DNA of 64,000 nt from Hormiphora californensis. Lineage: Eukaryota > Animalia > Ctenophora. The position numbers and the translations under genes were made by a program. Below, piece by piece: positions 4,526 to 64,000 of the stretch. The stretch's first letter is position 1, and the number at the start of each line of letters is the position of its first letter. The notes under the pieces are model-generated. The model made no database searches. It had not been told where the DNA came from and saw nothing but the letters and a program-made list of their open reading frames with translations. Location: assembly GCA_020137815.1 (NCBI GenBank), contig CM035356.1, positions 6,572,001 to 6,636,000 of the forward strand, read 5' to 3'.

Positions 4526-7500
4526 TTAGAAAACAGCAAGGGGATCCACAGTTGGATCAGCATCTTCAATCCCAAAATACATCTTCCTATGTTCCTTGAA
4601 TCTATGTAGCAGATCTTCAAACGAACTCTGACAAAACTTTTCCTCCCCTTTACTGCTTGGCAGGTAAATCTTCGGATGCCACTTCTTGGACCCCAGGAAC
4701 GGATTTGAAACCCACAGAATGGTACTGCTATCCTTCCCAGGGACGACTCTAACAAGTGCAATGCCGCTAATGTGCACATAGTCGTGGACACGGTGAGCTA
4801 TCTTGGCCTCCTGGATGGCTTTCTGGGTGAAAGTTCCTGCGGGGAAATCATGGAGAAACCCGAATTGGTAGAGCATGGTCTCGATCTCTGTGATGTCGGC
4901 ACAAGGGATGTCAATGTCAATGGGAGCCCGGAAGGGAGCCACTTCGGGGGGCATTCGGTCTGGTTTTTGGCCCATTTCGGGGGAATCAAATGGTTTCAGG
5001 GGTACTTGGATCAGTTGGAACTTAGCTTTGTCTGCCTTGCTCCTCCACCGGGATAAGTATGATCCTTCAATAAGTTGAGCGGTGGCTCTATCCCATTCAA
5101 TAGTCATTCCAAAGGCGTGCTGGACCTTATAACAGGAATCAAAATTAACGATAAAAAACTCGTTCCTCTCAATTTCCTTCTCGACACTTTCAATTTCCAA
5201 GGGACACCCCAAAATGGGTTCAAAATCGGCAAATCTAGCCGGGGTATCCGGGGTAGCAACTTCAAAGGGTTCCCTCAAATTTGCAACCGGTGATTCACTA
5301 CCGCTTTTACTGGCAGTCCGAATATAGTAGAAGTAAAATCCATCCACAAATAGTGGCGCTTGTCCCCCTTGTGTGTCTGCAAGTTCCACAATTATCCTCT
5401 GATCAAGGAGGGTCTGGCAGAATTTGATGGCGTGGCTGTGGTCCATCATATCAACACGAGACCTCATCACAAACTCAACTAACCACGCTCCCAGGAACGT
5501 GTTGGGTGGTAACACTGGGTACTGGTTCTGCCCTGTCACATGCTGCTTTCCTGTTTTTACAAACCGCATCCCATTTTCTACCGTCACCGTATCTCTAAAT
5601 TCCTCAAGCTCGTTCTTGCTCTGTGATATCAGTTCAGTCGATTTGGTTTTGCTGAACAAACTCATGAACCGTTTACCCTCTTTCTCCTGGTCACTTTTCA
5701 CCTGTTCATCTTCAGAGAACCGGTGGGAGAAAGAGAATCGCTCTGTTTCCACTAAAGTACCAGTCCTAGGTCTACTGAAATCATCGGGAAGGGGCGAGTT
5801 GGGGGCGGATTCCGTTTGCGATAGGCCCAGGGAGAGACGATTAGTCGTCTCCCACACGTTTGTCTCGCTGTGTTTCAGGTTGTTGAGTGCAAACAGAATG
5901 TTGTAGAATGTATTAGCAATTTCACGATCTGTAAAGTCGGGGTTCGCCACATTATGATCGCTCCTTCGAAAGAATACATCAGGTCGAGGAACGAGAATGT
6001 AGCGTGATTGCCATGGTCTCAGGGTGGAATAACTATCGTTTTCAAGATCTTGAGGCCGGTAATCGTCGAAGTTATCCTTATCCATTAGGGTGACAATCCA
6101 ATTGTCGAACAAATTCCACTTTTCATCACGCATCCAGTCGCGAGTTCGCCGTTCTGAGCGGCACTGAAGCAGGCCCCTTAAACCGTGATTGAGGGCCCCC
6201 AAAAAGGGGCTCAAACAATACTTGTAATGTAACTTGGACATCTGCCCCTTTTTCTCCGGTTTACTGATTTTAACCTGGATTGGTCCGTGTATGGGATCCG
6301 TTAGATCGATCTCATGGTACATGTACCCCTGACTAACCGTAACAGTGCTCTTCTTCTGGTGTCTCTTGAGGACCACCTGAAATCCCCTACTGAGTCTCTG
6401 CATGACAATCTCCCGTTTTATCATGTTCAGGTCCACCCGGCTGTTGGAGTTGAGACCGATCAGGGTGTACGGGGTCTCCCGACACTTGTCTCGCTGCCTT
6501 GGGTCGGGGTAGTAGTCAGTTGTGCAGGGGAAACAGGCAGGGGTGATTAGACTTTGCCAGTCCATTGTATTATCTGATGTTGTATCTTGTTCTACTCTCA
6601 AACTCATGGACAAACCATGCCATGCACCGATGGAGGGAAAGACATGAGCCCACCTCCGTCTACTGTTTGTAGCTGGCCGAGGTAGCTCCGATGGTCTGAA
6701 TGGGTTGGTCTCTGGTTGGGGATGGTTATGTGCTGCCCTTCTCCTACTGCTCCCACCCGGTCCGTGGTGTTCCAGACCCAGGGTTCCCCCGATCGAGTTA
6801 GATTGACCTGTTTCAATGTCACTGGAGAGACTGTTTCGGTGCTTCCTCACTAGGACCATGATGATGGTGGTGGTGATCATCACCACAGCCTGCAAAGTTG
6901 TGGTGATAACTGGGTGCCACGGTGAATAAATTGTTATCATACACATCACAGAGCTCAGCTAGTTTCCGCTGAGTGCATTCCTCGAGGTTATCAGGGAAGT
7001 AGTCAGCTGCGTTGTGGAAGGGGATGATGGTGGGGGAGGGGTTGGAGGTGAGCCCGGAGATGGGGATGAATTTGTCAGTGTTCGGGTGTACTGAGTAGAA
7101 GTGGACATTCATCCAGTGGGGTACCTGGAAATACAGTGTGTCACAATTAACATGGTACCTGGAGAGGATAGAGAGTGTAAAAATAGTGGGGGAGAGGACA
7201 AAGGGGTAAATGTATCGGTCCGGTAAATCTCGAGGGTAAGGTAAATAAAGGTTAGACTGTATCAAAAAAGAGAAAGTCTTATGATTTAAAAAATGTGATT
7301 TCTATTCGTTTCTATACGAACCTGGAACTTGTCATACATTCTCTCCTCCTTTTTCCTCTGAACATTGAACACGAACAGTGGAGTGGCATGAAGGGGTTTA
7401 CTACCCAGACAAATCACATCAGCACCAACACCCAAATCTTGGACTCTGTGTTTGGTGAGGGATGCCAGTTCTCTGTCCACGTAGAATACTCCTGAACCTG

Positions 7501-10500
7501 CTGTTACTACCACTATCTGCTGTCCAGTACGGTAGTGGACTCTATCCTGGTGGGGGTGAGGGGGTGAGAGGAGGGGGTGAGGGGAGGGGGTGAAGGGTGA
7601 ACCTGCTGTTACTACCACTATCTGCTGTCCGGTACGGTAGTGGACTCTGTCCTGGTGGGGGTGAGGGGGTGAGGACGTGAGGAGGGAGGGTGGGGTGAGG
7701 GGAGGGGTGCTGTTACTACCACTACCTGCTGTCCAGTACGGTAGTGGACTCTGTCCTAGGTGAGGGGGAGGGGGTGAGGGGAGGGGTGAGGGGAAGGGTG
7801 AGGGCGTGATCCTGGCTGGGGTGAGGGGAAGGGTGAGGAGAGGGTTAGGAGAGGGGTAAGGAGGGGTTTGAGGAGGGAGCCGGGAGGAGAATTTATTATA
7901 TCGGAGATGATTGATGATGTCATATCAAATCACGTGTCACAAGTGATGACATACATTGTAGTGGTTGTTGTACTGATCAAGGGCAAGGTTTATACACTCA
8001 AGGAAACTTCCCTCCGCACTCGTAGACACTTCCATATTGTGTGACTTGTTCAACTGATCCAGTATTATTCCCAGCTTGTTAAATCTAAAGTGAGGGGAAT
8101 AATATGTTGAATTCCTTATCATTTCTCAGGCAAATGTTAAGTTTTTTTTAAAGATTTGTCATATAATAGTTGCTGAAACCAAGTAAAACTTCAAAACTTA
8201 TACATGTCAGTACGTTTGTTCAATGTTCCACTCACCGTTTGCCTTTTCTCGACCCTGTCTCACCCCCTCCTGCCTGGCCCGATATATAGGAGGATTTCAG
8301 GAACCGACCGACACAAGTAAACAACCAATCAGAACTCGTTATTTAGGTCACATGACTGGTCATCAGCCAATCAGGGACCAGTATTTCCTGATTCGGTCGG
8401 TTCCTGGTTTGAACAACTCACCGTCTCTTCATAATGGTAATTATGGGTTTAACGTCTGTTATGTTTCCTCCGTCGCACACAACATCGTAAATATCCAAGA
8501 AGGGTCGATCATACTGATCTTTCTGTGGAGAGATGGGATGGAATCTATTGAGTGTTATTTAACTCTTTTCAACCTTCAAAGTTTTGGGATTTCAGGGCCG
8601 GGAACTATAGTCTTGTTATGAGGGGTTACCAAGATTGAACAGTATTATTCTGGTGCAATCATGGTACTTGTTACAGTCGGACCCCGATTTACCGGAACCT
8701 CGATTTACCGGGAGGGTAAACTTCCCCCGATATAGGAACCGGGCACCCCGATTTACCGGGCAAAGCGCTTTCCCCCGAGCATCCCGGTAAATCGGGGTCT
8801 GACTGTATATTGTTCTACTTCCCTTCACACAGGGGAAAGAGCTGGTCAAAGACGTATTACTTGATCTACCGAACCCTCGCATAACAGTGTTACATGACCT
8901 ACACAAAGTATACCTGTATCATGTGTTTGTACTCTTCCGGATAATTCCCCTCCTCACAAAAAAGTCGAGTAAAGAATATTATTTGAAGATCATGGTTTGC
9001 CTTTGTACTCTCCCACTTCTCAAACAGCGTCTTGACAAACTGATACACCACCTTTTCCCAGTTTTCCCAGTTTTCCACCCCTTCGTAGTCGTTCTCCCAC
9101 ATTTCTTTTCCAATCTGAGTGTGAGACTTCAGTTTAAAATACTATCTCGCCCTTTTAGTGAATGATTTTAAAACATTCACACTGGAAAATCTTAAAACAT
9201 TAAAACCTGAATGATTTTAAAACATGCACCTGGAAGAAGAGTTGAGTGTAGGATGATAGGGACCGGAATGTAAAGAGAGTATCCTCATCAATATATCCTG
9301 ATGTCACCATTACGTCACGTCGACCTGGCTGGTGACACGGATTATCCGTGCATGAAGTTGATGATGACGATGCTGGCAGCAGTTGGGTAGTTGAATCTGC
9401 TGTCTTGTACAGCGCTTTAACCTGAACAATAATTGTTGTGAGGAATGACTATCAGGACCCAGGAATCCAACATTCGGAAGTTCCCCCAGAAAGTTGCTGC
9501 CACGGTTATCCAGGTTTTGGAAAAAAAGAAAGAAAAGTGGTAGTTGTTACCAGGAACCGACCGAACCAAGTAAACAGCCAATCAGAACTCGTTATACAGG
9601 TCACGTGACTGGTTATCAGCCAATCAGGGACCAGTATTTCCTGATTCGGTCGATTCATGGTTGTTACCTGGACGGTTATACCGCTGAACACCATGTGCTT
9701 CTTGTGATGGGTGCACGTCCCCCAGAAGTTCCTTCGCAACCTCCACATGTCCCCTCTACTCACATACTGATCTGACACTGACACCTAGAGGTGGGAGGAT
9801 TAGGACTCCCCTCTACTCTCCCCTCTACTCTGACACTGATACCTATAACAGGTGGGGGTGTGATCTGACACTGACACCTAGAGGTGGGAGGGTTAGGACT
9901 CCGTCTTGGAGAGAGTAAGGAGGGGTGAGGGGACTGGGGAGGGGTGAAGCTGATAGAGATGATACTGATCTGTACCTAGAATAGAGGAGTGAGATGGAAT
10001 CCCAGCAATCCAAACATAATACAATTTGGGGAGCTGATTTGTCTAGAAACCAGCGGGCTGCCTTACGCAGAGTGTGAACAATACAAGAGCTCATCATGGA
10101 GACTGTATCATTTACAAATTAACGCTAATCACCTCAACATGGCGAAGTTTGCAGTCTTTAGGTTCAACAACTTCCACAGTCACCTCCTCGTTCGATCGGA
10201 AATCTGACAAGTTCGTGTTCACGCTTAATCCATAGCCCTTTAGACGGTGGTCCTCAGGCTCGAAGATCCCAGTTACCTACAATAACGAAGGAATGATTTG
10301 ATGAATGTAAAGCGAACTTTGAAATTTCAAGACAATAATAATTTCGTTGAGATAACAGGACCGTTCTCAGGATATACGGTTCATTTAATACCTTCACATA
10401 AACATAAAGTACAGGGTTGGGTTTACTCGTTATTTTTATCAATGTGTCCAAAGGTGCTGGAATCTTTTCAGGATTCAACAACACAGTATCTTGAACAGCC

Positions 10501-10653
10501 GCCTGAATAGAAAAACGGTTTTAGAATTTGTTTATCATGCTAGCTGTGGAGATCCCTTTAGCAACTCATTACTTACCGCCCTAAAATTAATGTCCCACTA
10601 TCTCTTTTACTCACCGAGCTTGCACAGTGAATTTTGCATTCCCATTTCTTCAT
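4526..10653 (-). CDS. DEPDC5: GATOR1 subunit DEPDC5/IML1, multi-exon; one frameshift at ~6835
   Basis: Approximate exons 10614-10653 (MKKWECKIH), 10392-10501, 10133-10203, 9668-9783 (DQYVSRGDMWRL), 9229-9325 (SGYIDEDTLFTFRSLS), 8914-9114, 8422-8518, 7955-8084 (GSFLECINLAL), 7322-7548 (RTGQQIVVVTAGSGVFYVD...PLHATPLF), 4526-7124 (PHWMN, NPFRPS, RRRWAHVFP, DWQSLITPACFP, QRLSRGFQ, DEP domain, YVHISG). Small exons may be missed. Confidence 0.9.
7497..7758 (-). repeat. Three tandem copies (~105 bp) of an intron end plus exon start of DEPDC5
   Basis: ctgttactaccacta.ctgctgtcc.gtacggtagtggactct.tcct occurs three times, separated by G-rich tracts. Confidence 0.85.
8298..8406 (+). mobile_element. ~109-bp MITE, family A (CAGGAACCGACCG termini), hAT-like
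   Basis: TIR caggaaccgaccga/tcggtcggttcctg; one of 7 copies in the window. Confidence 0.9.
8674..8805. mobile_element. TA-flanked MITE (CAGTCGGACCCCGATTTA termini), Tc1/pogo-like
   Basis: ta|cagtcggaccccgatttaccgg ... ccggtaaatcggggtctgactg|ta; related fragments near 2580-2638, 44960-45036 and 48237-48260. Confidence 0.85.
9551..9659 (+). mobile_element. MITE family A with 8-bp TSD
   Basis: Flanked on both sides by gttgttac. Confidence 0.9.
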
Positions 10654-10786
10654 TTCTTCTTCGTTTTTTGCAACTTTCTACATCTTTATGAAATCTATTG
10701 CTCCTAATGAAATGACTTTAGAATACATCTGGTCCACTTAGACAAAAGACGATTTCAACACGGCTCTGGTTGGATAAAACGACCAC

Positions 10787-10909
10787 TAAAGTCCGTTTCA
10801 AGCGACTTGACCCGTAATTCTTGGAATTTGGCGCATTGCGCGTGTATTTACAAAGGGGAAATCCTGAATTTCCAGGAATCTCAGGTCAAGTCGTTTGAAA
10901 CGCACTTTA
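10787..10909. mobile_element. MITE (TAAAGTSCGTTTCAA termini)
   Basis: Inverted termini; a second, inverted copy lies at 58790-58937. Confidence 0.8.
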
Positions 10910-10912
10910 AAG

Positions 10913-11058
10913 TCCATTTTTTTTCAACTGTTCACCCAAAAACTGAAATTTAATAAAAATTAGAATTTGGGTGGCGCGCGCTACACGTTAACATGTGATA
11001 AACGCGCAAAACAATTCCGCGCACGACTTTGGGGGGTGAACAGTTGAAAAAAAATGGA
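10913..11058. mobile_element. MITE (tccattttttttcaactgttcaccc termini)
   Basis: Inverted termini; a second copy lies at ~62375-62518. Confidence 0.75.
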
Positions 11059-11351
11059 GTATAAAGCTACGAAAAAATTTGGCAAACGTTGCGCGGGATA
11101 AGGCAGCGCTTTTCAACGAAAAAATCAAAAAAGTATGCAAAAAAACAAAGTTCTTGCCAAACAAATTTTTCAATTCAAGTTTTTATTTTACGAATACAAG
11201 CGCGCCGCATGAAATGCCTCGTTTCAATTTAAATTGTCGCGCGTTACAAACAAATACACCGTGGAATATCGTGAAAGGAAACAGCTTCCAAATTTTGAAC
11301 CTTTCGTTTTTTTTAAAAGTGTTGATTTTTTCTTCTTTCGTTGTACATTAT

Positions 11352-14300
11352 CAGGGGCTGATAGTGAGACCGCAGAATCTGTCGTGTGCTGCGCACAAAA
11401 GACTAGCAAATTTGAGTGGGTTGTACGGAAAAGCTTGCTGAGAGAGCAAATAACGGAATTTTTCCAAATTTTTTTCACTGTGGGATTCACAAGACCGTCA
11501 CCTACAGCCCAGTGAAATCCCCGTGAAAAACGGTTAATTACAAGGTTCGCAGTGATCAAAACCGTAAACAACTTCATTTTTCAGTTTTCTTCATTTTTGA
11601 GAGGGTAGAGCTCTTTACCACACTGTCACTCAAAATTGAGATAGAAAATCGAAAAAAATCGTCAAGTGTGTATCTCAAAATTGTCCATTCTTTCGATTCC
11701 CGGGTTTTTTGAAACTCCTAGGGCAAGCGTCTAGGGTGCAACCTCAAAAAACTTTGAAAACACCGTTTTTTTGAGCGCCGGATGAATTCTGCGGTCTCAC
11801 TCAAAGTCACGTGACTTAGGACTAATTAGGCAAGTGAGAGCTGGGTTGTGAGACCGCAGAATGTGTTGTAATTCGTATATTCATATGAATCTCTCTCTTT
11901 CCCTCTCTTCAACACCACATTCTCTCCTTTTTGAGTGTAGAAACACACCAAGGGGGGGGGGGGGAAGTCTTTGGCCTTTCCTCGATCGAGTTGATCAGAA
12001 AGAGAAGAAAGGGGAGTTGGGCAGAATGGGAAGGGAGAGTGCGGAGGGGGGCAAGTGGCTGTAAAAAGGAAAAAATAGTCAAAGCTTTCATCAGTGCATA
12101 GCTCTACGCTATAGCTCTATCACGTCTGCCGCTCTCTCACGCACGCGCGCGCGCGAGCGAGAGCTGGCTAGAGCGTAGAAAGCAGCTAGAGCGAGCGCGA
12201 GCGAGATATACCGCAGCGACGCGCTCTCTCTGATTCTATCTCTCATCTGTTCTAGTCTCGCGATTAAATCTTAAGGCTGTAAAAAGCCTGGGATATCTCC
12301 TCGACAACCTACGTTGTTTTTTCTACGTTGTTATTGAAAGAGGAGCGGAGAGAGAGAGAGAGAGAGGGAGAGTTGACGACGAAGACGCTAGAGAGGATCC
12401 GGTGAGAGACGAGTGATTGCAGCATGATCATGAGGAGCAAGATGCCGAGAGTGTCGGCGATGTAGAGAGAGAGGCGAGAGAGAGCCGATACTGGTTACCC
12501 ACACGTTGGACCAGGACGAAGAGATTCGTAGTAAAGAGAGATGACGATGTTGAGCAGATGGTGCGGGAGAGAGAGTTTGGTGAGGATGTAGAACCTATGA
12601 TATTCTGACGAGAGAAGAGAGAGAGAGAATTCAGAGAGGAGCGTTACGCCTACGTAATGCTTAGGCATGGAAGATGAAGTGACTGAAGAGATGAGCAGCA
12701 CCTGACTTGTTCACCAGAGAGAGACACCTGCGGAGGAGATGTATCTGAGCGGTGATGAGCAGAGAGTTCGAGAGTTGGAATCGAGACTGATGAATAAACT
12801 ATGCGGAGATCGGAGAGCGCAGATGGATTCCTCTCCGCTCATGTCGTCTATCGATCCGTTAAGGCAGAGATCCCCTGATTTCAGTTCGGATTTGTGATCT
12901 CGACGGGAGAGACTTGATTGAGCCCCGTGCTGCTATTAGTCGGAGAGCATGACGTTTTGTAGGAGACTGGAGGACGGAAGAGTTGGATTGTTCGATTCGA
13001 TTGCCGCACTGGCATGGAGAGGCATGGATGAGCACTTGGAAAGGGACGATGAGAGACTAAGATGTCTGGGATCTTTCTCTGATCTTTCTTTGAAGCGACT
13101 GCCCTGGCTCAGAGTAGACGAGAGAGGTACCGACGGACCCGGATGAGAGTAACCGAAGCGAGAGGTTAGGGAGACAGTTATGACGAGAGATTAGGAGTAT
13201 GGAGAGATACAGAGTCGCTTGAGCGATGGACGACACGCCGGAGATTCGCACGGAGTGAGCTGATTGATTCTCCCCGGGAGACGTCCCCTTTTCTGAGACT
13301 TGGACCCTTTGTGAAGACCTTGAGAGCCTAGACATCGGAGTGACGATGTCCACTGACACTAGGAGACGTTTTAGCGAGAGCAGACGTCTAGTTGTTCTTG
13401 GAGACGAGGCCGAGATTGACTGAGAGAGGCCCGATGAGGAGTATGACAGGGAGAGATCCTACATCTATTTCGAAGATCTTGAGGAGAGATGACGTGGATT
13501 GAGAGAGAGAGAGGGAGCGAGGATTGGAAAGCGAGAGGGAGAGAACTCTTGACGACCGACTGAGAGATGTGAGTGCAAGACTGGCTGAGAGAGAGAATTC
13601 AAGAGAGAACGAGAGAACGGACGATGAGAGAGAGAAGAGAGAGATAGCTAGCGGAGAAGAGGTGAGGAGGAGGATGAGAGAGAGATCGGAAGATGGGGAG
13701 AGAAGGAGAGAGGGAGGGAGGGGAAGAGAGAAGAGGATTGGAGGAGAATGAAGAAGTGCTGACAATATAGTGTATGTGCACTTGCGTCTCCTTCGCTCGG
13801 TTATTTATAATAACACGGTGCCACAGTAGCTGGATGCTTAGTGGCTAACAGTAATCCTACCAAACCAAACAGAGTAGGAGCGAGAGATCATAGCTTTCGA
13901 AGAGGGTGAGCAGAAATGGAGATTTGAGATGAGTGGAGGGGGAATGAGAGATGGGAGTGGGGGAATCGGGATATAAATAACGACTAAGAAGAGATATAGG
14001 TTACTCGTATTATAGGTATGGGATGTTATATTCTGAGTGATCCTCAGAAATTGTACTCATTTATGGTCCACCCAAGTGTTATACCATCTTACTTCGAGGT
14101 TGATGATTAGAAATAAGAGATGAATCTTGCCACATTCGTCTAGGAAAACATGACACGGTGCTGAGAAGTTCAACATAGCGTGGAACTCATTCTCGCTAAT
14201 GGGCAGTTAGTTATATCAACCTTTGGGCATCTCGCACCGACCCACCCCTCTGTTCTGTACAGGGTTTGGACGCTACACACAGCCAAACTCAAGCTCCTTC

Positions 14301-16082
14301 TCTTTCTTTATCCTTTGGTGATCTCAACTAGATGAGAGAGAACCCCCCTAAATAAAAGAAACAATTAAAAGGACAAGTATGAAATAAAAAACGAAAGACT
14401 AAAGAAAAAAAAAAAAAGGGAAGAGGAGAGAAGAGGCTAGGTCTCACGCTCATTAGGTTGAGCAAAGCTCTTTAGGGCCTAATCCGCAGATTCTACTACT
14501 GGTAGAGTTTGGATGTTATGAAACCCCCTTAGCATACGACAGAGTTTAATAAAGCAGAATAGTGTCATGTCGATCTGGTGTATGTAGCTAGGAAAGGATG
14601 GAGCTCTAGTCTGCATGAACTTTACCGATAGTAGATTGATGAGTATATCACTATGCCAAGCTTGGTGTAAGAGCCTCTCAGACAGTAAGAGCAGATGGTC
14701 CTCACCATATACGCGAGAAGGCGGCCGACTGTAGATGATGAGTAGGAACGAGAGATGTAATAGCTAGATGAGCGGGTTACTTAGAGAGAGAGGAGGCGGG
14801 AATGGATGAGAGAAGAGAGACGAGGGCCAGAGAGAGAAAGAGCGAGCGAGAGAGAAAGAGAGGGAAGAGAGAAGAGAGAGAGAGGGGAGACTATAGCTAG
14901 GATTTTCTCGACGCGAGCTGCGCTCGCTCTCTCTCAATCTAGCTAAGACGCGATCTCATCGACTATGATATCTCTAGCGAGCGCTCTCGCTTCTCTTTTG
15001 CCTCTCCTGTATCTCTCTTCTATCATCTCTTACTCTCCTTTCTCTCTCCACTCTCTCTCACGCTCTCACTCTCGCTCTCGCTCTCTCTCTCTCTCTCTCT
15101 CTCTACTCTCGCTCTATTTCAAATTAAAAAATAAAGAAAAAACAAAGAGGATTCAGAGATATGCCCAGGCTTTTTCCGCCTTATGATTTATCCGAGAGAC
15201 TAGGAAAAGAGATAGGCGAGAGGAGAGGAAAGATTGAGAAGGAGAGTGAGAGAGGAGACGGAGAGGAGGAGAGAGGAGAGAGAAGAGAAGAGAGAGGGGA
15301 AAAAGGGGGAAGAGAGGGAGAGAAAAAGGGGAAAAGAGGAGAGGAGAGAGAGTTGAGAGGAAGGGGGAGAGAGAGAGGAGAGAGGGGGAGAGATAGGAGG
15401 GGATGAAAGTTTTTTGACTATTTTTTCATTTTACAGCCATCCCCAGCACTCCCCCCGTTTCGATAAAATCGATCGGGAAAAAGGCCCAAAAAGATTCCCC
15501 CCCCCCCCCCCTTGGTGTTTTACATAAAAAAGGAGAAAATGGGTGTTGAAGGAGGGAAAGGGGAAAATTAATATGAATATAGAATTACAACACATTTGGG
15601 TCCACAACCCAGCTCTACTGCCTAATTGTCCTAAGCAGTGATTTTAGGGCCGCAGAATTCCCGGCCCCTAAAAAAAAACGGTTTTTTTTTTCAAAGTTTT
15701 TAGGTTTGCACCCTAGAGGGTTGCCCTAGGAGTTTAAAAAAACCCCGGGAATGAAAAAAAGGAAAATTTTGAGATACACACTTGAGATTTTTTCGATTTT
15801 ATCTCAATTTGAGGACGGGGGAAGAGCTTCCCCTCTCAAAAATGAAAAAAAAACAAAAAATGAAGTTTTTTCGGTTTTTGTACTGCAAACCTTGAAATAA
15901 CCCGTTTTTCACGGGGATTTCACTGGGCTGTAGGTGACGGTCTTGTGAATCCCACAGTGAAAAAAATTTGGAAAATTCCGTTATTTGCTCTCTCAGCAAG
16001 CTTTTCCGTACAACCCACTCAAATTTGCTAGTCTTTTGTGCGCAGCACACGACAGATTCTGCGGTCTCACTATCAGCCCCTG
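11352..16082. mobile_element. 4.7-kb DNA transposon with ~1-kb inverted arms, inserted into the (TAA)n tail of the SL-capped retroposon
   Basis: attat|caggggctgatagtgagaccgcagaatc ... gattctgcggtctcactatcagcccctg|attat. Arms are alignable to ~12330/~15120 (mirror ORFs 11234-11515 and 15799-16050). The interior is degraded and GA-rich. Confidence 0.9.
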
Positions 16083-16114
<32 letters not shown>

Positions 16115-16220
16115 TAAAATGTATACATTACATATACTGCCCCTTTTTTGTGGGCAAAACGGATAGCCATTAATAAGTCCCATTAGAAGTCTCTTCAGTG
16201 CACATGTCACTGATTAGAAG

Positions 16221-17243
16221 TCAGCCACATTTAATTACCCCCCTGCTAACCCAATATCGTCCATTCGGATTGTCTCGCCTCAGTCCTTTCACTGTATCAA
16301 CGAGAGTTTTCCGTTCTCGCTGTTCCTCCGGTGTTAGGTCGGGGGAAAGAAACACCGAGGAAAATTTCTCTGAATCCCGGAGCTGCTTTGCTTTCCTGAG
16401 AAGCTGCAACAAGGTTTCCCTCCTTTCAAGGGTAACGATTACTGGTCTTGGTCGGTTATCAGTCTTTTCGCCGACTCGCTTTGTGGAAGTTATGACTGGT
16501 TTTTCATTCAGCTCTGTAAAAATATCTCGAACTTCATGCTCAGTGGTTCTTGCAGTAGTTTCTAGTAGCCCAAACAAAACCAAATTCAGCTTTCGATCAG
16601 GAGTTGCTTCTTCTGTTGTACTTGTGGGAAGGGGCACTGACGCTTTCTTCCATGCTGCTTGGAGGCGGGATGGTGCAATAGCCGCTGAGCAGTTCTGGAC
16701 AAGTACTTTGGAGTAGCCCTGCAATTGCTTCTGAACAGACTCCGACACCGAATTGAGTTTCTGACCTTGTACTTCAATCAAACTTTTTTGTGCTTCAATC
16801 AGCTTCTCTTGTAACTCAATCCTTGATACCCGATGTTTATCAACCTCTTCCTTGAATGAGCCAAGCTCTTTTTGTACCTCCTTGAGTTTCCGATTACACT
16901 CCTCTAGTTCCCGACGTTCTTTCATACGGACAGTTTCATCGTTATTTTTCATACATAGTCCAGCTTCCCTCGCTATCAGAAGAATATGACGGCAGAGGTT
17001 CTTGGTGAAGGCCATGAACTGATGTCCATTATAATTTTTTAAAGCGTAGTCTACTGGCAGTGATCGACTGGAATCCAAGAATAACATCCGCAGCTCTTCA
17101 TCCACCTGATGGTGACTCGGTTTGGTTCCATTCCTGATTAACAAAACGTCTCTTACTGCATAACGAAGTAGTTCCATCACCGAGGGATCAACACATTTCA
17201 GTGGATCGGCATCTGCATCAGAGGTATTGAGTTTCTCCGTCAT
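16221..17243 (-). CDS. LINE ORF1p-like protein (coiled coil + L1/Transposase_22-type RRM-CTD)
   Basis: RKLNLVLFGLLE, RVG...RPRPVIVTL and VFLSPDLTPEEQRERK motifs after a coiled coil; homologous to 59757-60713. Confidence 0.85.
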   Translation of the reverse strand: MTEKLNTSDADADPLKCVDPSVMELLRYAVRDVLLIRNGTKPSHHQVDEELRMLFLDSSRSLPVDYALKNYNGHQFMAFTKNLCRHILLIAREAGLCMKNNDETVRMKERRELEECNRKLKEVQKELGSFKEEVDKHRVSRIELQEKLIEAQKSLIEVQGQKLNSVSESVQKQLQGYSKVLVQNCSAAIAPSRLQAAWKKASVPLPTSTTEEATPDRKLNLVLFGLLETTARTTEHEVRDIFTELNEKPVITSTKRVGEKTDNRPRPVIVTLERRETLLQLLRKAKQLRDSEKFSSVFLSPDLTPEEQRERKTLVDTVKGLRRDNPNGRYWVSRGVIKCG

Positions 17244-17290
17244 AACTTCTTCCTGCCCCTACGGGCGGTCTCAACATCCTGAGGACATAT

Positions 17291-17327
17291 CTCAAATTAA
17301 TTTGTTTAAAGTAGTGTTGAAAAGTTT
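17291..17327 (-). other. Genomic copy of a spliced-leader-like exon
   Basis: aaacttttcaacactactttaaacaaattaatttgag, identical to 59664-59700. It matches my recollection of the ctenophore SL and is not followed by a GT donor. Confidence 0.8.
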
Positions 17328-17744
17328 CGTTGTACAGCGGGTCCGAGACCCACTTTTCGGATGGAAGAAAGGAAGAAATTGCTTAAATTATCTGATTCTT
17401 GACGAGATTTGCAGAAATCGAAGTTTTGAGCGTACGCCTTGAAAAGAACCAACACACGACTGACCACAGAGCTGTCCTCAGAGGGTCCGGACCCAGTTCA
17501 CGCCCTACATTTAAAAGCTTGGCGTGACAGATGCAAAGTAGAAAAATGAGAATATGAATAAGATTTATTGCGAAGGGTAGACGGAAATCTGAGAGAAAAA
17601 GAATAAACCTATTTTTCAGAAGGACGATTTTTTTAAAGTTTCTAGCAGCCCTTAATTCGTATTTATAAATGTATCTCTTATTTGATTTTCCAGAAGATGG
17701 TATAAGAAATTTTACGCTCGGTGATTTGAAAGCAGTTTGCCGTC

Positions 17745-25635
<7,891 letters not shown>

Positions 25636-58937: not shown

Positions 58938-59663
58938 AAAAAACTTTGGGCGCGTTCATTAAAATAATCTTCGAAAATTGGGACATGGACCGGCGCGCGG
59001 TAACTGCTGCGCGTTTATAATTTAAAAAAAACCGCCGAATCCATTTATTTCATTTCACAGCGGCGCTTATTCAAACTGACGGAGCGCGCAGAGCACCCTG
59101 TCGCTAAGGACTTTCACTGCGCTGACAAGCGCTTAGAAAATCATTTTGAATATCCATTTTGAATTTGCAGACTCTACAGTCGCGTGAAGGATGTTCATGT
59201 CAGAGACTTTGAATTTCAATAGGGTATTAGGGTATACCAATTATCAGGAACAGGAGATCAAGGTGACCATTTGAAAGTACGAAGTGACGAAGTGTACGAT
59301 GGTCGATGGTTTTGTTGTCAGGTACGTGTACTGAGGTACGGGGGTGGGCTTCGTCGCGCTCTACATACGTTTTTTTACAGGGGATTGCGCAACGTGCTCA
59401 CATGGTTTTGAGACAATTCAGCATAAAAACCTGGAATGTTTAGAAAGTACCCTCCCCCCCCCCCAGAGATCAGAATGAGGTGAAGACTGCAGATATTATG
59501 GTAAAAGAAGACGTGTGAAGGACAAGATATATATTACACCTGCCCTGATTAACACACACAGTGATTGTTGTTAGGGGGTGTCAACTGACAATCATGGTAA
59601 GTAGTAATCAGGGAGAGTTGTGTGACTTGCTACTTACGCAACCTGGGTCTTTATTGTTTTTTC

Positions 59664-60868
59664 AAACTTTTCAACACTACTTTAAACAAATTAATTTGAG
59701 CAGGAAGATGAATCCGATGTAACAGCCCCGAAGGGCAGAAAAACGAAACGTTGATAATGTCGGAAGCGAAGTACGAGGGCGATAACCCTATGATAAAACG
59801 ATTAGAAGAGACGGTGGATGACTTTGTTTCTGAAGTTTACCTGTTGAATTCGGACAACACGACGAGCATCACACCAGATGAGTTTACTCAATGTTATAGA
59901 TCGATTCAAGCTGCTCCCGATTCAATGTTAACCAACGACAGCTTAGCTTCGCCTAGCAAGCACTGGGGTTCGTACTTTAGACATTGTCTCAAGGACCGAA
60001 CTACGAGTGAAATAATCGAGGCTACTTCGCGTATTTTTCTCTCTAGTATGAAACTTGCCCGAGCAACAATGAACAATTTTGAAACGGTTATCAGTGTGGA
60101 AAACCTCGAGAAACAGCTGCGTGAATGTAAAGAAGAACTTGACCGCCATCGGGTTAACGTAATCGAGCTTCAGCAAACGGTTATCAACCACCAGAAGCAA
60201 CAACTCAGTACAGTGACAGCATCGGTGCAGAAGGTGAAAGCCTACTCTACTGTGCTAGCACAGAATTGTGCTGCAACCTCCCCCAAAGTGGGAAAACCAC
60301 TACCAGTGAATCATCCTACTCCCGTCCAACAGCCCGGAAGAGAGAAGAACATGGTTGTGTTTGGTCTCCCAGAAACAACCGATAGAGTAGCTAAAACTAC
60401 TTTAGACGAACTTTTTGAGGAATTAAATGAGAAACCGAAAGTGACTACGATGAAACGCATCGGCGAAAGAAATGAGAAGCGCCCTAGACCGCTCTTAGTA
60501 TCCCTGGAGAAGAGAGCGACTCTCCTCGCACTCCTCAGAAAGGCACGAAACCTCAAAGACTCCAAACAGTTTTCGGCTGTTTATCTCTCTCCGGATCTTA
60601 CGCCCTCTGAACTGAAAGAGCAAAAAGCTCTAAGGTCCACTTTGAAGCGGATACGATCAGAAGATCCTGACGGCTGCTACTTCATCCGTAATAATCTTAT
60701 CCAAGTGGGATAGTTCCCCACTAACTCACCGTTATCAGAGAACCGTGCTAGGAGCAGGCAGTCTACTGCAGTCCCTTTCAAATTAAGGAAAACGAGTTGT
60801 CTGTATACAAACTGTGTCAGTGCGGGATATAAACTGTCATTTTTATTATTATTATTATTTATTATTGT
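59664..60868 (+). mobile_element. SL-capped LINE-derived element 2 (ORF1 plus a stub of ORF2)
   Basis: 37-nt SL-like motif at 59664-59700, intronless ORF1, in-frame CLYTNCVSAGYK after the stop, (TTA)n run at 60842-60866, and a possible TSD ttattgt (59651-59657 / 60862-60868). Confidence 0.8.
59757..60713 (+). CDS. LINE ORF1p-like protein
   Basis: First in-frame ATG at 59757; REKNMVVFGLPE, RIG...RPRPLLVSL and VYLSPDLTPSE motifs; C-terminal ~200 aa clearly homologous to 16221-17243. Confidence 0.85.
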   Translation: MSEAKYEGDNPMIKRLEETVDDFVSEVYLLNSDNTTSITPDEFTQCYRSIQAAPDSMLTNDSLASPSKHWGSYFRHCLKDRTTSEIIEATSRIFLSSMKLARATMNNFETVISVENLEKQLRECKEELDRHRVNVIELQQTVINHQKQQLSTVTASVQKVKAYSTVLAQNCAATSPKVGKPLPVNHPTPVQQPGREKNMVVFGLPETTDRVAKTTLDELFEELNEKPKVTTMKRIGERNEKRPRPLLVSLEKRATLLALLRKARNLKDSKQFSAVYLSPDLTPSELKEQKALRSTLKRIRSEDPDGCYFIRNNLIQVG

Positions 60869-61318
60869 ATAGGAAACTGCTGTGTCTTTCTTTTTCGATC
60901 GTCCCCACTCCCCGTGCTAACATTTAATTTGTTATTACAGTTGTTTGAGCGTTAATAGGATAAATAACATCGAATTGTGCATATGCCAAGTACCTCGTAG
61001 GCTGTTTTTTATCAAACTTTTCAGCAATTAATTTGTCTTTTAGCCATCATAAGGGTATTTTGCTGATTAGTCTCCTTCTCTTTCTTTAAAAAAAAAGACT
61101 TTTTTACTACTAACTAACACGGCCAAGGCAGCTTAGTGCTTGTAGTGAGCAAACAGTTTTCAATAAACAGTTTCTGTCCAAAAAGAGCTGCACAAAATAT
61201 TGAAATTAGATGTTTCAGACGAGAGTCCGACACTTTTCAATACTTTCATTTACAGCGAAACCCTTGCACCAGCTACGTTTAGTCGTCGAATACCGTTTTC
61301 CCACTTTAACATGCACCA

Positions 61319-63223: not shown

Positions 63224-63561
63224 TCTTTTTGCTTAGAACTTTATTATCAACAGTAAACACCGCCGAATTTAGAACTGCATGGCGGATACGCAAACCAACA
63301 ATTTCTATTTCCATCCTTTGGAGACGAAAAGCTCCCTGTCGTTAACAAGTGTATCAGGGAGTTTGTTACTGTTGTTAACTATGACACGGTGCACCAGAAG
63401 AGTCGTCAGCCAAAACTAAAAAATGCTCAAAAAACGACTTGGGAGTCACCCAGGTTCAGGAAAGTCTCCTGGATCACACCCAAGTGGATTTTTTTTTTAT
63501 TTTTTAGTTTGGGTTGATGGCCCCGGTCGATGACTCTTCTGATGATGATGCACCCTTTCAG

Positions 63562-64000
63562 GTTTTCAACTTGATGGCCTTGAAGGTATTGACGACCCGA
63601 GAAAAGACTCGAAATGTCAACAACCTGTTTTACATAAACCTAGCTATTTGTGACATGCTAGTCGGTCTCACAACAGGTGAGAGATACTACAGATATTGTT
63701 AAGTTAAGAACAAGATATATATGATGTACAAAGTAATACAAAATATAATAATTGTTTACTTAAGTTTCATGCGTTCACAATCGTCAGAACGTAGGTAGTT
63801 TTTGTAGGGAGGATGATATTTTTAGTGGTCCGCGGGGAGTGATCCTTTCTAAACTAAGTTCTTTATTACTTGGTCTTTGTCCCTGACCCTGCAAGTTTGA
63901 ACTTATATCCCACTGTTATACAAGTTCTATATATATTTTCAAACAGGTCCCACGACGTTTATAGTTCAGATCTGTAACTCCTGGATTTTCGGTCAAACAA
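63562..64000 (+). CDS. Rhodopsin-family GPCR, partial (TM1-ECL1), continuing off the right edge
   Basis: Exon 63562-63676 VFNLMALKVL...NNLFYINLAICDMLVG and exon from 63947 PTTFIVQICNSWIFGQT; possible first exon from ATG 63279. Confidence 0.75.

Follow-up and report, generated by a model that had tools for sequence, protein, structure and literature searches.

HAL1 (L1 clade), HeT-A (Jockey) and Ag-Sponge (CR1) are bipartite non-autonomous long interspersed nuclear elements (LINEs) in which ORF1 is present (PMC5786205). Host spliced leaders (SLs) have also been seen joined to mobile-element RNA. In Hydra, ~30% of transposable-element reads carry an SL (PMC12220107), and a study of flatworms excluded 597 loci in which partial leaders lie next to long-terminal-repeat (LTR) elements or LINEs, suggesting integration of trans-spliced retrotransposon RNA (PMC12582326). 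Retrogenes of dinoflagellates carry relic SLs and can accumulate them in tandem (PMC6050394). In this report, we describe two SL-headed units, element 1 and element 2, in a 64,000-nt stretch of the genome of the ctenophore Hormiphora californensis (GCA_020137815.1, contig CM035356.1, positions 6,572,001 to 6,636,000 of the forward strand; hereafter “the window”). They are real and recently mobile, and they are a variant of the ORF1-only non-autonomous retroposons of the HAL1/HeT-A/Ag-Sponge type.

Like those three, the units described herein have one ORF1-type protein (here recognized at the level of the fold), no reverse transcriptase (RT), probable mobilization in trans and a LINE-type 3' end. 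The marks of target-primed reverse transcription (TPRT) are present as simple-repeat tails, (TAA)n and (TTA)n, and as target-site duplications (TSDs) of 12 (or 9) and 7 bp. Unlike HAL1, HeT-A and Ag-Sponge, which retain the 5' portion of their parent LINE, they begin with a host SL and a leader of ~20-56 nt; further, the type of head varies within a family, and 3' untranslated regions (UTRs) differ between close relatives. We rejected HAL1 proper, with its L1 5'-UTR promoter and poly(A), because a host SL forms the 5' end here and the tails lack poly(A).

The flatworm loci and the Hydra transcripts share with our elements the joining of a host SL to retroelement RNA and, in genomic copies, the presence of the leader; unlike the present case, those accounts, in the sections consulted, do not describe a family, an ORF1-only unit, a TSD, a polymorphism or a replication cycle. 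As in the dinoflagellate retrogenes (PMC6050394), a genomic SL marks an RNA that was trans-spliced and reverse-transcribed. Instead of host-gene cargo, however, we find a retroelement protein, simple-repeat tails and one head per leader, and an SL-bearing host retrogene was therefore discarded as a class. NeSL, SLACS, CRE and CZAR are autonomous non-LTR elements with an RT and a restriction-like endonuclease that insert into SL RNA genes. The likeness here is the association of a non-LTR element with SL sequence. An SL-gene-targeting LINE was rejected, since the TSDs enclose the SL, the insertion sites are single-copy and unrelated, no GT follows the SL, the empty site has no SL, and RT is lacking. 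Our literature search found no SL-headed ORF1-only family; Repbase, Derelle et al. (2010) and the supplements of PMC8527503 were outside that search and may hold such elements. The available sections of PMC7986045, PMC8557442, PMC4824033, PMC12460157, PMC4233971 and PMC2770079 contain nothing on them.

Results

Anatomy of element 1

Element 1 lies on the minus strand of the window and is composed as follows.

17336..11336, minus strand: whole unit, interrupted by a nested transposon (11352..16082)
17325..17336, minus strand: 5' copy of the 12-bp TSD, its final 3 nt in common with the SL
17291..17327, minus strand: SL, the last 37 of 44 nt, 5'-truncated; its junction with the flank is inside single unitigs in runs X1 and X3
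17244..17290, minus strand: 47-nt leader, holding a 5-codon upstream open reading frame (ORF)
16221..17243, minus strand: intact ORF1-like protein of 340 aa, with a helical N-terminus, a long coiled coil, an RNA recognition motif (RRM) at ~217-300 and a C-terminal domain (CTD) at ~305-340
16083..16220, minus strand: 3' UTR (~110 nt) and (TAA)n tail (16110-16083)
11336..11351, minus strand: remainder of the tail (11351-11347) and 3' copy of the TSD (11347-11336)
11352..16082, no strand: nested DNA transposon in the tail of element 1, multi-copy, with terminal inverted repeats and the ends CAGGGG/CCCCTG

An original prediction, made from the letters of the window alone, had proposed an SL-capped, ORF1-only retroposon here, and its coordinates for the 37-mer, leader, ORF, 3' UTR and (TAA)n tail were all borne out. 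The same is true of its claim that a TSD would emerge once the nested transposon was excised. Within the 64 kb there are exactly two occurrences of the 12-mer TGTACAACGAAA, with minus-strand starts at 17336 and 11347, at both predicted ends. The final 3 nt of the 12-mer are shared with the SL, so that the duplication measures 12 or 9 bp; its first T is shared with the tail. An exact match by chance in a 20-base window at a predicted end has a probability of ~2e-6 for the 12-mer and 8e-5 for the 9-mer. The filled 5' junction is present in unitigs of both X1 and X3 and is thus not an assembly artefact.

The nested transposon is where the original prediction had placed it. It sits inside the (TAA)n tail and has terminal inverted repeats that match at 97% over 128 nt and at 88% over 451 nt. 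Its flanks are AT or ATAAT, i.e. a 2- or 5-bp duplication. Its interior is rich in GA/CT (40% vs 25% of dinucleotides) and is probably error-laden. In the ORF of element 1, residue 227 is Leu, whereas every aligned contig reads Pro. Given this substitution and the transposon in its tail, element 1 may be inactive.

Element 2 and its empty site

A second SL-capped element, at 59658-60868, had been missed by the original prediction. The 37-mer matches it exactly from 59664.

59651..59657, plus strand: 5' copy of a 7-bp TSD, supported by the empty site
59660..59700, plus strand: SL, the last 41 of 44 nt, with two extra T ahead (59658-59659)
59701..59756, plus strand: 56-nt leader, holding a 4-codon upstream ORF
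59757..60713, plus strand: ORF1-like protein of 318 aa
60714..60868, plus strand: 3' UTR, (TTA)n tail (~60839-60861) and 3' copy of the TSD (60862-60868)

The two proteins are 46% identical over 222 aa (42% in a global alignment). Besides the SL, the elements have no nucleotide BLAST match in common, and their UTRs are unrelated; they represent two families, numbered accordingly.

Element 2 is a polymorphic insertion, filled in the window and empty in X3, which has a different sample and study code from X1. A single 1003-nt X3 unitig matches 59498-59657 with no difference and continues, again with none, at 60872-61300. The three letters between the aligned blocks equal the count of 60869-60871, and one copy of the 7-bp duplication is present. 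No SL occurs in the empty site, which thereby fixes the mobile unit at 1.2 kb. In X1, the alignment of one unitig ends at 59657, leaving 23 more letters, and on the right flank a unitig begins 10 letters before 60872. This geometry of the unitigs fits a site that is heterozygous in X1. At the end of the family-2 ORF, one X3 contig skips 201 nt (60535-60737), an internally deleted copy.

Between its TSDs, each unit holds one ORF and no RT. The absence of RT that the original prediction had asserted for element 1 therefore holds, and the empty site bounds element 2 in the same way. No RT family was matched in 74 + 69 + 76 stop-to-stop frames of the window, a set that does not cover all short frames. 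As for longer forms, the only one encountered was a chimeric gene model (P0012), with no ORF1-ORF2 fusion, which is weak evidence.

The ORF1-like protein

Two AlphaFold models were made, with mean pLDDT values of 61.8 and 84.3. In Foldseek, the ten best matches of both models are human L1 ORF1p, with best E values of 1.9e-5 and 1.4e-6. The RRM aligns with the central domain of L1 ORF1p with a Z score of 10.4 and a root-mean-square deviation of 2.5 over 84 residues, whereas generic RRMs reach 8.8. Structural alignments to the chains of the L1 ORF1p trimer extend into the CTD. The predicted order and fold of coiled coil, RRM and CTD thus resemble those of human LINE-1 ORF1p (PDB 2YKO, 2W7A, 2LDY); unlike that protein, to which identity is ~20% and which gives no profile match, the present one has an extra helical N-terminal part. 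The ORF is predicted to fold and work like L1 ORF1p; the fold does not fix the LINE clade. In calling it a LINE-ORF1-like ORF, the original prediction was right as to the fold (Foldseek and the RRM alignment), but the profile match to Transposase_22 did not materialize.

Copy number, relatives and selection

Both families are multi-copy. In X1, single-unitig depth is 400-785 for family 1 (flank, 46.8) and 615-1231 for family 2 (flank, 46.7); overall, unitig depth is roughly 9-26x that of the flank. In X7, depth is confined to bins inside the element. The one-off retrocopy that had been named as one refuting case is thus not what is found. Two loci were seen with their flanks.

Relatives of element 1 form eleven clusters at 47-96% identity, and a profile search returned 677 related clusters at E < 1e-10. 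Of the 147 proteins newly listed, 101 have 250-360 aa. Members of the six nearest clusters lie almost always on short contigs (55/57 on contigs <2 kb, with a maximum of 2548). In the more distant P0196 cluster (30% identity), 5 of 11 members are on contigs of 5.9-6.8 kb, the size of a full LINE, and these are candidate autonomous LINEs with a homologous ORF1. No further ORF1 copy was found in the window by tblastn with 193 proteins. Viral contigs held neither an ORF1 relative nor an SL match, and prokaryote genomes gave no SL match; a 38-residue prokaryote match (L004) was rejected as chance.

Three JGI contigs, L001, L002 and L003, encode relatives. The ratio of nonsynonymous to synonymous substitution (dN/dS) is 0.19 for element 2 vs L002 and 0.15 for L001 vs L003, the two closest pairs. 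Among the variant sites listed, 17/35 and 19/32 are silent, against 23% silent sites (these counts leave out 5 and 8 listed rows outside the ORFs), and there are no stops. ORF1 is under purifying selection.

L001 and L003 have ORF1 sequences that are 84% identical, yet their 3' UTRs (L001 1029-1252, L003 978-1186) are unrelated and their tail units differ. This combination suggests that 3' ends are exchanged between partner LINEs. Two X3 contigs share the family-2 3' UTR from 60745 on and have other letters upstream; they are candidates for a partner LINE or a sister family.

In Pleurobrachia bachei, a gene model carries a piece that is 80% identical to the ORF of element 1; together with the identity of the SL, this makes the host a pleurobrachiid ctenophore. 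Two models from this species, P0012 and P0197, fuse ORF1-like sequence to PSF3 or to a PDZ domain and are probably annotation chimeras.

The spliced leader and other heads

In element 1, the 37-mer is identical to the 3'-terminal 37 nt of the 44-nt leader of H. californensis (PMC8527503). According to that paper, this leader is on 56% of Iso-Seq reads and has 718 copies in the genome, the Mnemiopsis genome has 491 leader copies, and such genomic copies are treated mainly as a read-mapping problem. The original prediction had taken the 37-mer for a ctenophore SL, and would have been overturned by its absence from the 5' ends of host mRNAs; the published leader matches it exactly. In X24, a probable RNA run from the same species, 611 contigs lie on the SL, and those listed run on into diverse sequences. 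In the DNA runs, 16-23 contigs per place run from the SL into diverse sequences, both upstream and downstream, and no GT consensus follows the SL; this points to many dispersed SL-headed insertions.

The SL is 37/37 identical between families 1 and 2, despite saturated synonymous sites and UTRs with no BLAST match. L002, a family-2 member, opens with 26 nt of this SL. Its SL plus leader is identical to that of element 2 at 82 of 85 positions, whereas 45% of synonymous sites differ. L001, from a third family, has another SL-like head, whose start and last five bases are the same as in the Hormiphora SL. Of the head of L003, only the last three bases are visible. In X1 and in X3, a single contig carries the end of this second head immediately ahead of 59696 (TTGAG into the family-2 leader), so this head also precedes the family-2 leader in the window species; within the window itself it does not occur.

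The type of head does not follow the ORF1 tree. L001 falls beside family 2 there, and grouping the three rows that carry the Hormiphora-type SL into one clade is rejected (approximately unbiased test, p 0.00015; 8 rows, labels set beforehand). All five leaders, read by eye, have a single head, with no tandem or relic SL. Repeated trans-splicing best explains both the identity of the SL across families whose synonymous sites are saturated and the change of SL type within a family. Thus, the leader was likely added more than once, and the earlier proposal that host trans-splicing supplies the 5' end fits the occurrence of two SL-like heads on one leader.

Both leaders (17244-17290 and 59701-59756) have, besides the tiny upstream ORF, the 8-mer CAGGAAGA, which is rich in purines and might act as a splicing enhancer. 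In X24 and X8, several contigs with an SL head match up to 10-12 bases into the family-2 leader, which may be alignment extension. One X8 contig of depth 6 spans 59687-60247 and joins the SL end to the family-2 ORF; it may be DNA. Rfam gave no match in 16000-17800.

Genomic context

The host genes nearest to element 1 are the following.

4529..10653, minus strand: DEPDC5/IML1-like gene, downstream of element 1 on the same strand (Pfam IML1, DEP, DEPDC5_CTD; candidate start codon by eye)
17745..18189, plus strand: start of a UBE3A-like gene (AZUL domain), head-to-head with DEPDC5 (candidate start codon by eye)

Element 1 lies within the ~1.1-kb intergenic gap between these head-to-head genes and is in sense with the DEPDC5-like gene, which makes read-through plausible. 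Two short pairs of inverted repeats, of 54 nt and 33 nt, lie between element 1 and DEPDC5 at 10776-11066 and are possibly miniature inverted-repeat transposable elements. Two long minus-strand frames (2-2509 and 4529-6958) both match DEP and DEPDC5_CTD; they reflect either a tandem duplicate of the 3' part of DEPDC5 or an assembly duplication. A weak 7tm_1 match (E 4e-5) lies ~2.6 kb downstream of element 2, also on the plus strand (63508-63699).

Discussion

Multi-copy units that consist of an SL, a short leader, an ORF with the ORF1p fold, a 3' UTR and a simple-repeat tail are probably best understood as non-autonomous retroposons that use a LINE RT in trans and obtain their 5' end from host trans-splicing. 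The RT is likely supplied by a full-length LINE, a partner that we infer. In much of this the original prediction is upheld, namely in the SL, the ORF1-like fold, the lack of RT, the TSD and the family, and it gains support from an insertion that is present in one sample and absent from another. Its further idea, that an integrated copy serves as acceptor and regenerates its own 5' end, is taken up below at a lower strength.

We propose a cycle of three steps. ORF1p would very likely coat its own RNA and co-assemble with the proteins of a partner LINE, which would copy the RNA from its tail by TPRT. It is likely, at somewhat lower strength, that the SL would be put on repeatedly by trans-splicing rather than retained from one old capture. 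The weakest step, for which we consider the chances a little under even, is that an SL-bearing copy in sense to a host transcript would be read through, and that a fresh SL would replace the integrated one at the same junction. A 5' truncation would thereby be repaired, and a promoter would be unnecessary. Replacement in place predicts a single head without a relic, as is seen in 5/5 leaders. Such a promoterless lineage, in which the trans-spliceosome would rebuild the 5' end and cap at the AG of the integrated SL in each cycle while 3' tails are swapped between LINE RTs, is a tentative proposal that we hold with less than even confidence.

Several points weigh against this account as a whole or in part. 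At the level of sequence, Pfam profiles assigned no named family to the ORF or its relatives and gave coiled-coil noise only; Transposase_22 was matched neither by the query nor in the 25 most shared of 84 families (60 aligned proteins); and PDB sequence searches returned no L1 ORF1p match. The depth ratio is a rough measure, and X1 may be the window's own source. As an acceptor, the SL end is poor, its terminal triplet being GAG rather than YAG. GAG acceptors are generally rare. In family 2, a CAG 3 nt after the SL end should compete as an acceptor. The trans-splice acceptors of flatworms are UUNYAG (PMC12582326). An AG-free run was rejected as acceptor evidence, as a 40-nt AG-free run precedes 8% of the AGs in the window. 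With regard to expression, X24 has no contig on the family-2 ORF, against its 611 on the SL, and 0.00 of family-1 words; X8 is a metatranscriptome whose contigs may be DNA. The second head at 59696 was seen as loose ends of unstated aligned length and is only a candidate SL; L001 itself may derive from a different species of ctenophore. In family 2, conservation of the leader exceeds that of the ORF, and a cis-element may possibly lie there. Finally, master copies with an ordinary outron may possibly exist beyond the loose ends listed.

The last of these points leads to a different reading, in which the SL-capped copies are dead-end processed products of promoter- and outron-bearing sources (an ORF1-only master, or a full-length LINE with an ORF1-only RNA) and do not replicate a second time. 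We regard this as unlikely. It would explain the identity of the SL and the two SL types on one leader equally well, would require only ordinary YAG acceptors, and is in keeping with the lack of ORF expression in X24 and with the other element that shares the family-2 3' UTR from 60745 in two X3 contigs; the same origin is proposed for the 597 flatworm loci (PMC12582326). Yet there are many diverged subfamilies (60-96% identity to element 1) under purifying selection, which would seem to need copies that can become masters. Further, the nearest clusters are almost only on contigs of unit length, no outron-bearing form is among the loose ends listed, and the tails are family-specific simple repeats, not poly(A).

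Should the SL, the 47-56-nt leader, or both be a fixed internal promoter, as in the head of a short interspersed nuclear element, trans-splicing would be occasional or ancient, and no GAG acceptor would be required. The close match of SL plus leader between element 2 and L002 (82/85, against 45% synonymous difference) does indicate a constrained leader, and a promoter role for the SL has been put forward for dinoflagellate retrogenes (PMC6050394). Nevertheless, two heads occur on one leader, the head type is at odds with the ORF1 tree, and the two copies in the window have lost part of the 5' end of the SL (37 and 41 of 44 nt remain), a loss that would erode a fixed head; we consider this reading improbable. 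More improbable by far is that the units arose as retrocopies of host genes, from a family domesticated out of ORF1. Such an origin would accommodate the intact ORFs and the purifying selection on them, and SL-bearing retrogenes are known in dinoflagellates (PMC6050394); it is contradicted by tails that are not poly(A), a 9-26-fold copy number per subfamily, a polymorphic insertion, the 677 related clusters, and the unrelated 3' UTRs and tails of L001 and L003 beside ORF1 sequences that are 84% identical. We thus retain non-autonomous retroposition with a host-derived 5' end as the probable explanation.

The elements bear on both the annotation and the biology of ctenophore genomes. Gene models of ctenophores absorb such elements, as in the P. 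bachei model that fuses ORF1 to PSF3, and a warning is therefore in order. Further, SL-headed elements offer an explanation for the 718 Hormiphora and 491 Mnemiopsis genomic copies of the leader; if the promoterless lineage exists, it would account for a large part of the SL copies, hundreds of them unexplained, in these genomes. Every round of reverse transcription leaves a non-LTR element with the task of restoring a 5' end that bears a promoter. Known ways of doing so are an internal promoter, insertion into arrays that are transcribed, and release from co-transcripts through ribozyme cleavage. If our proposal is true, host trans-splicing would be a further solution to this problem, one that compact and recently active families make directly testable.

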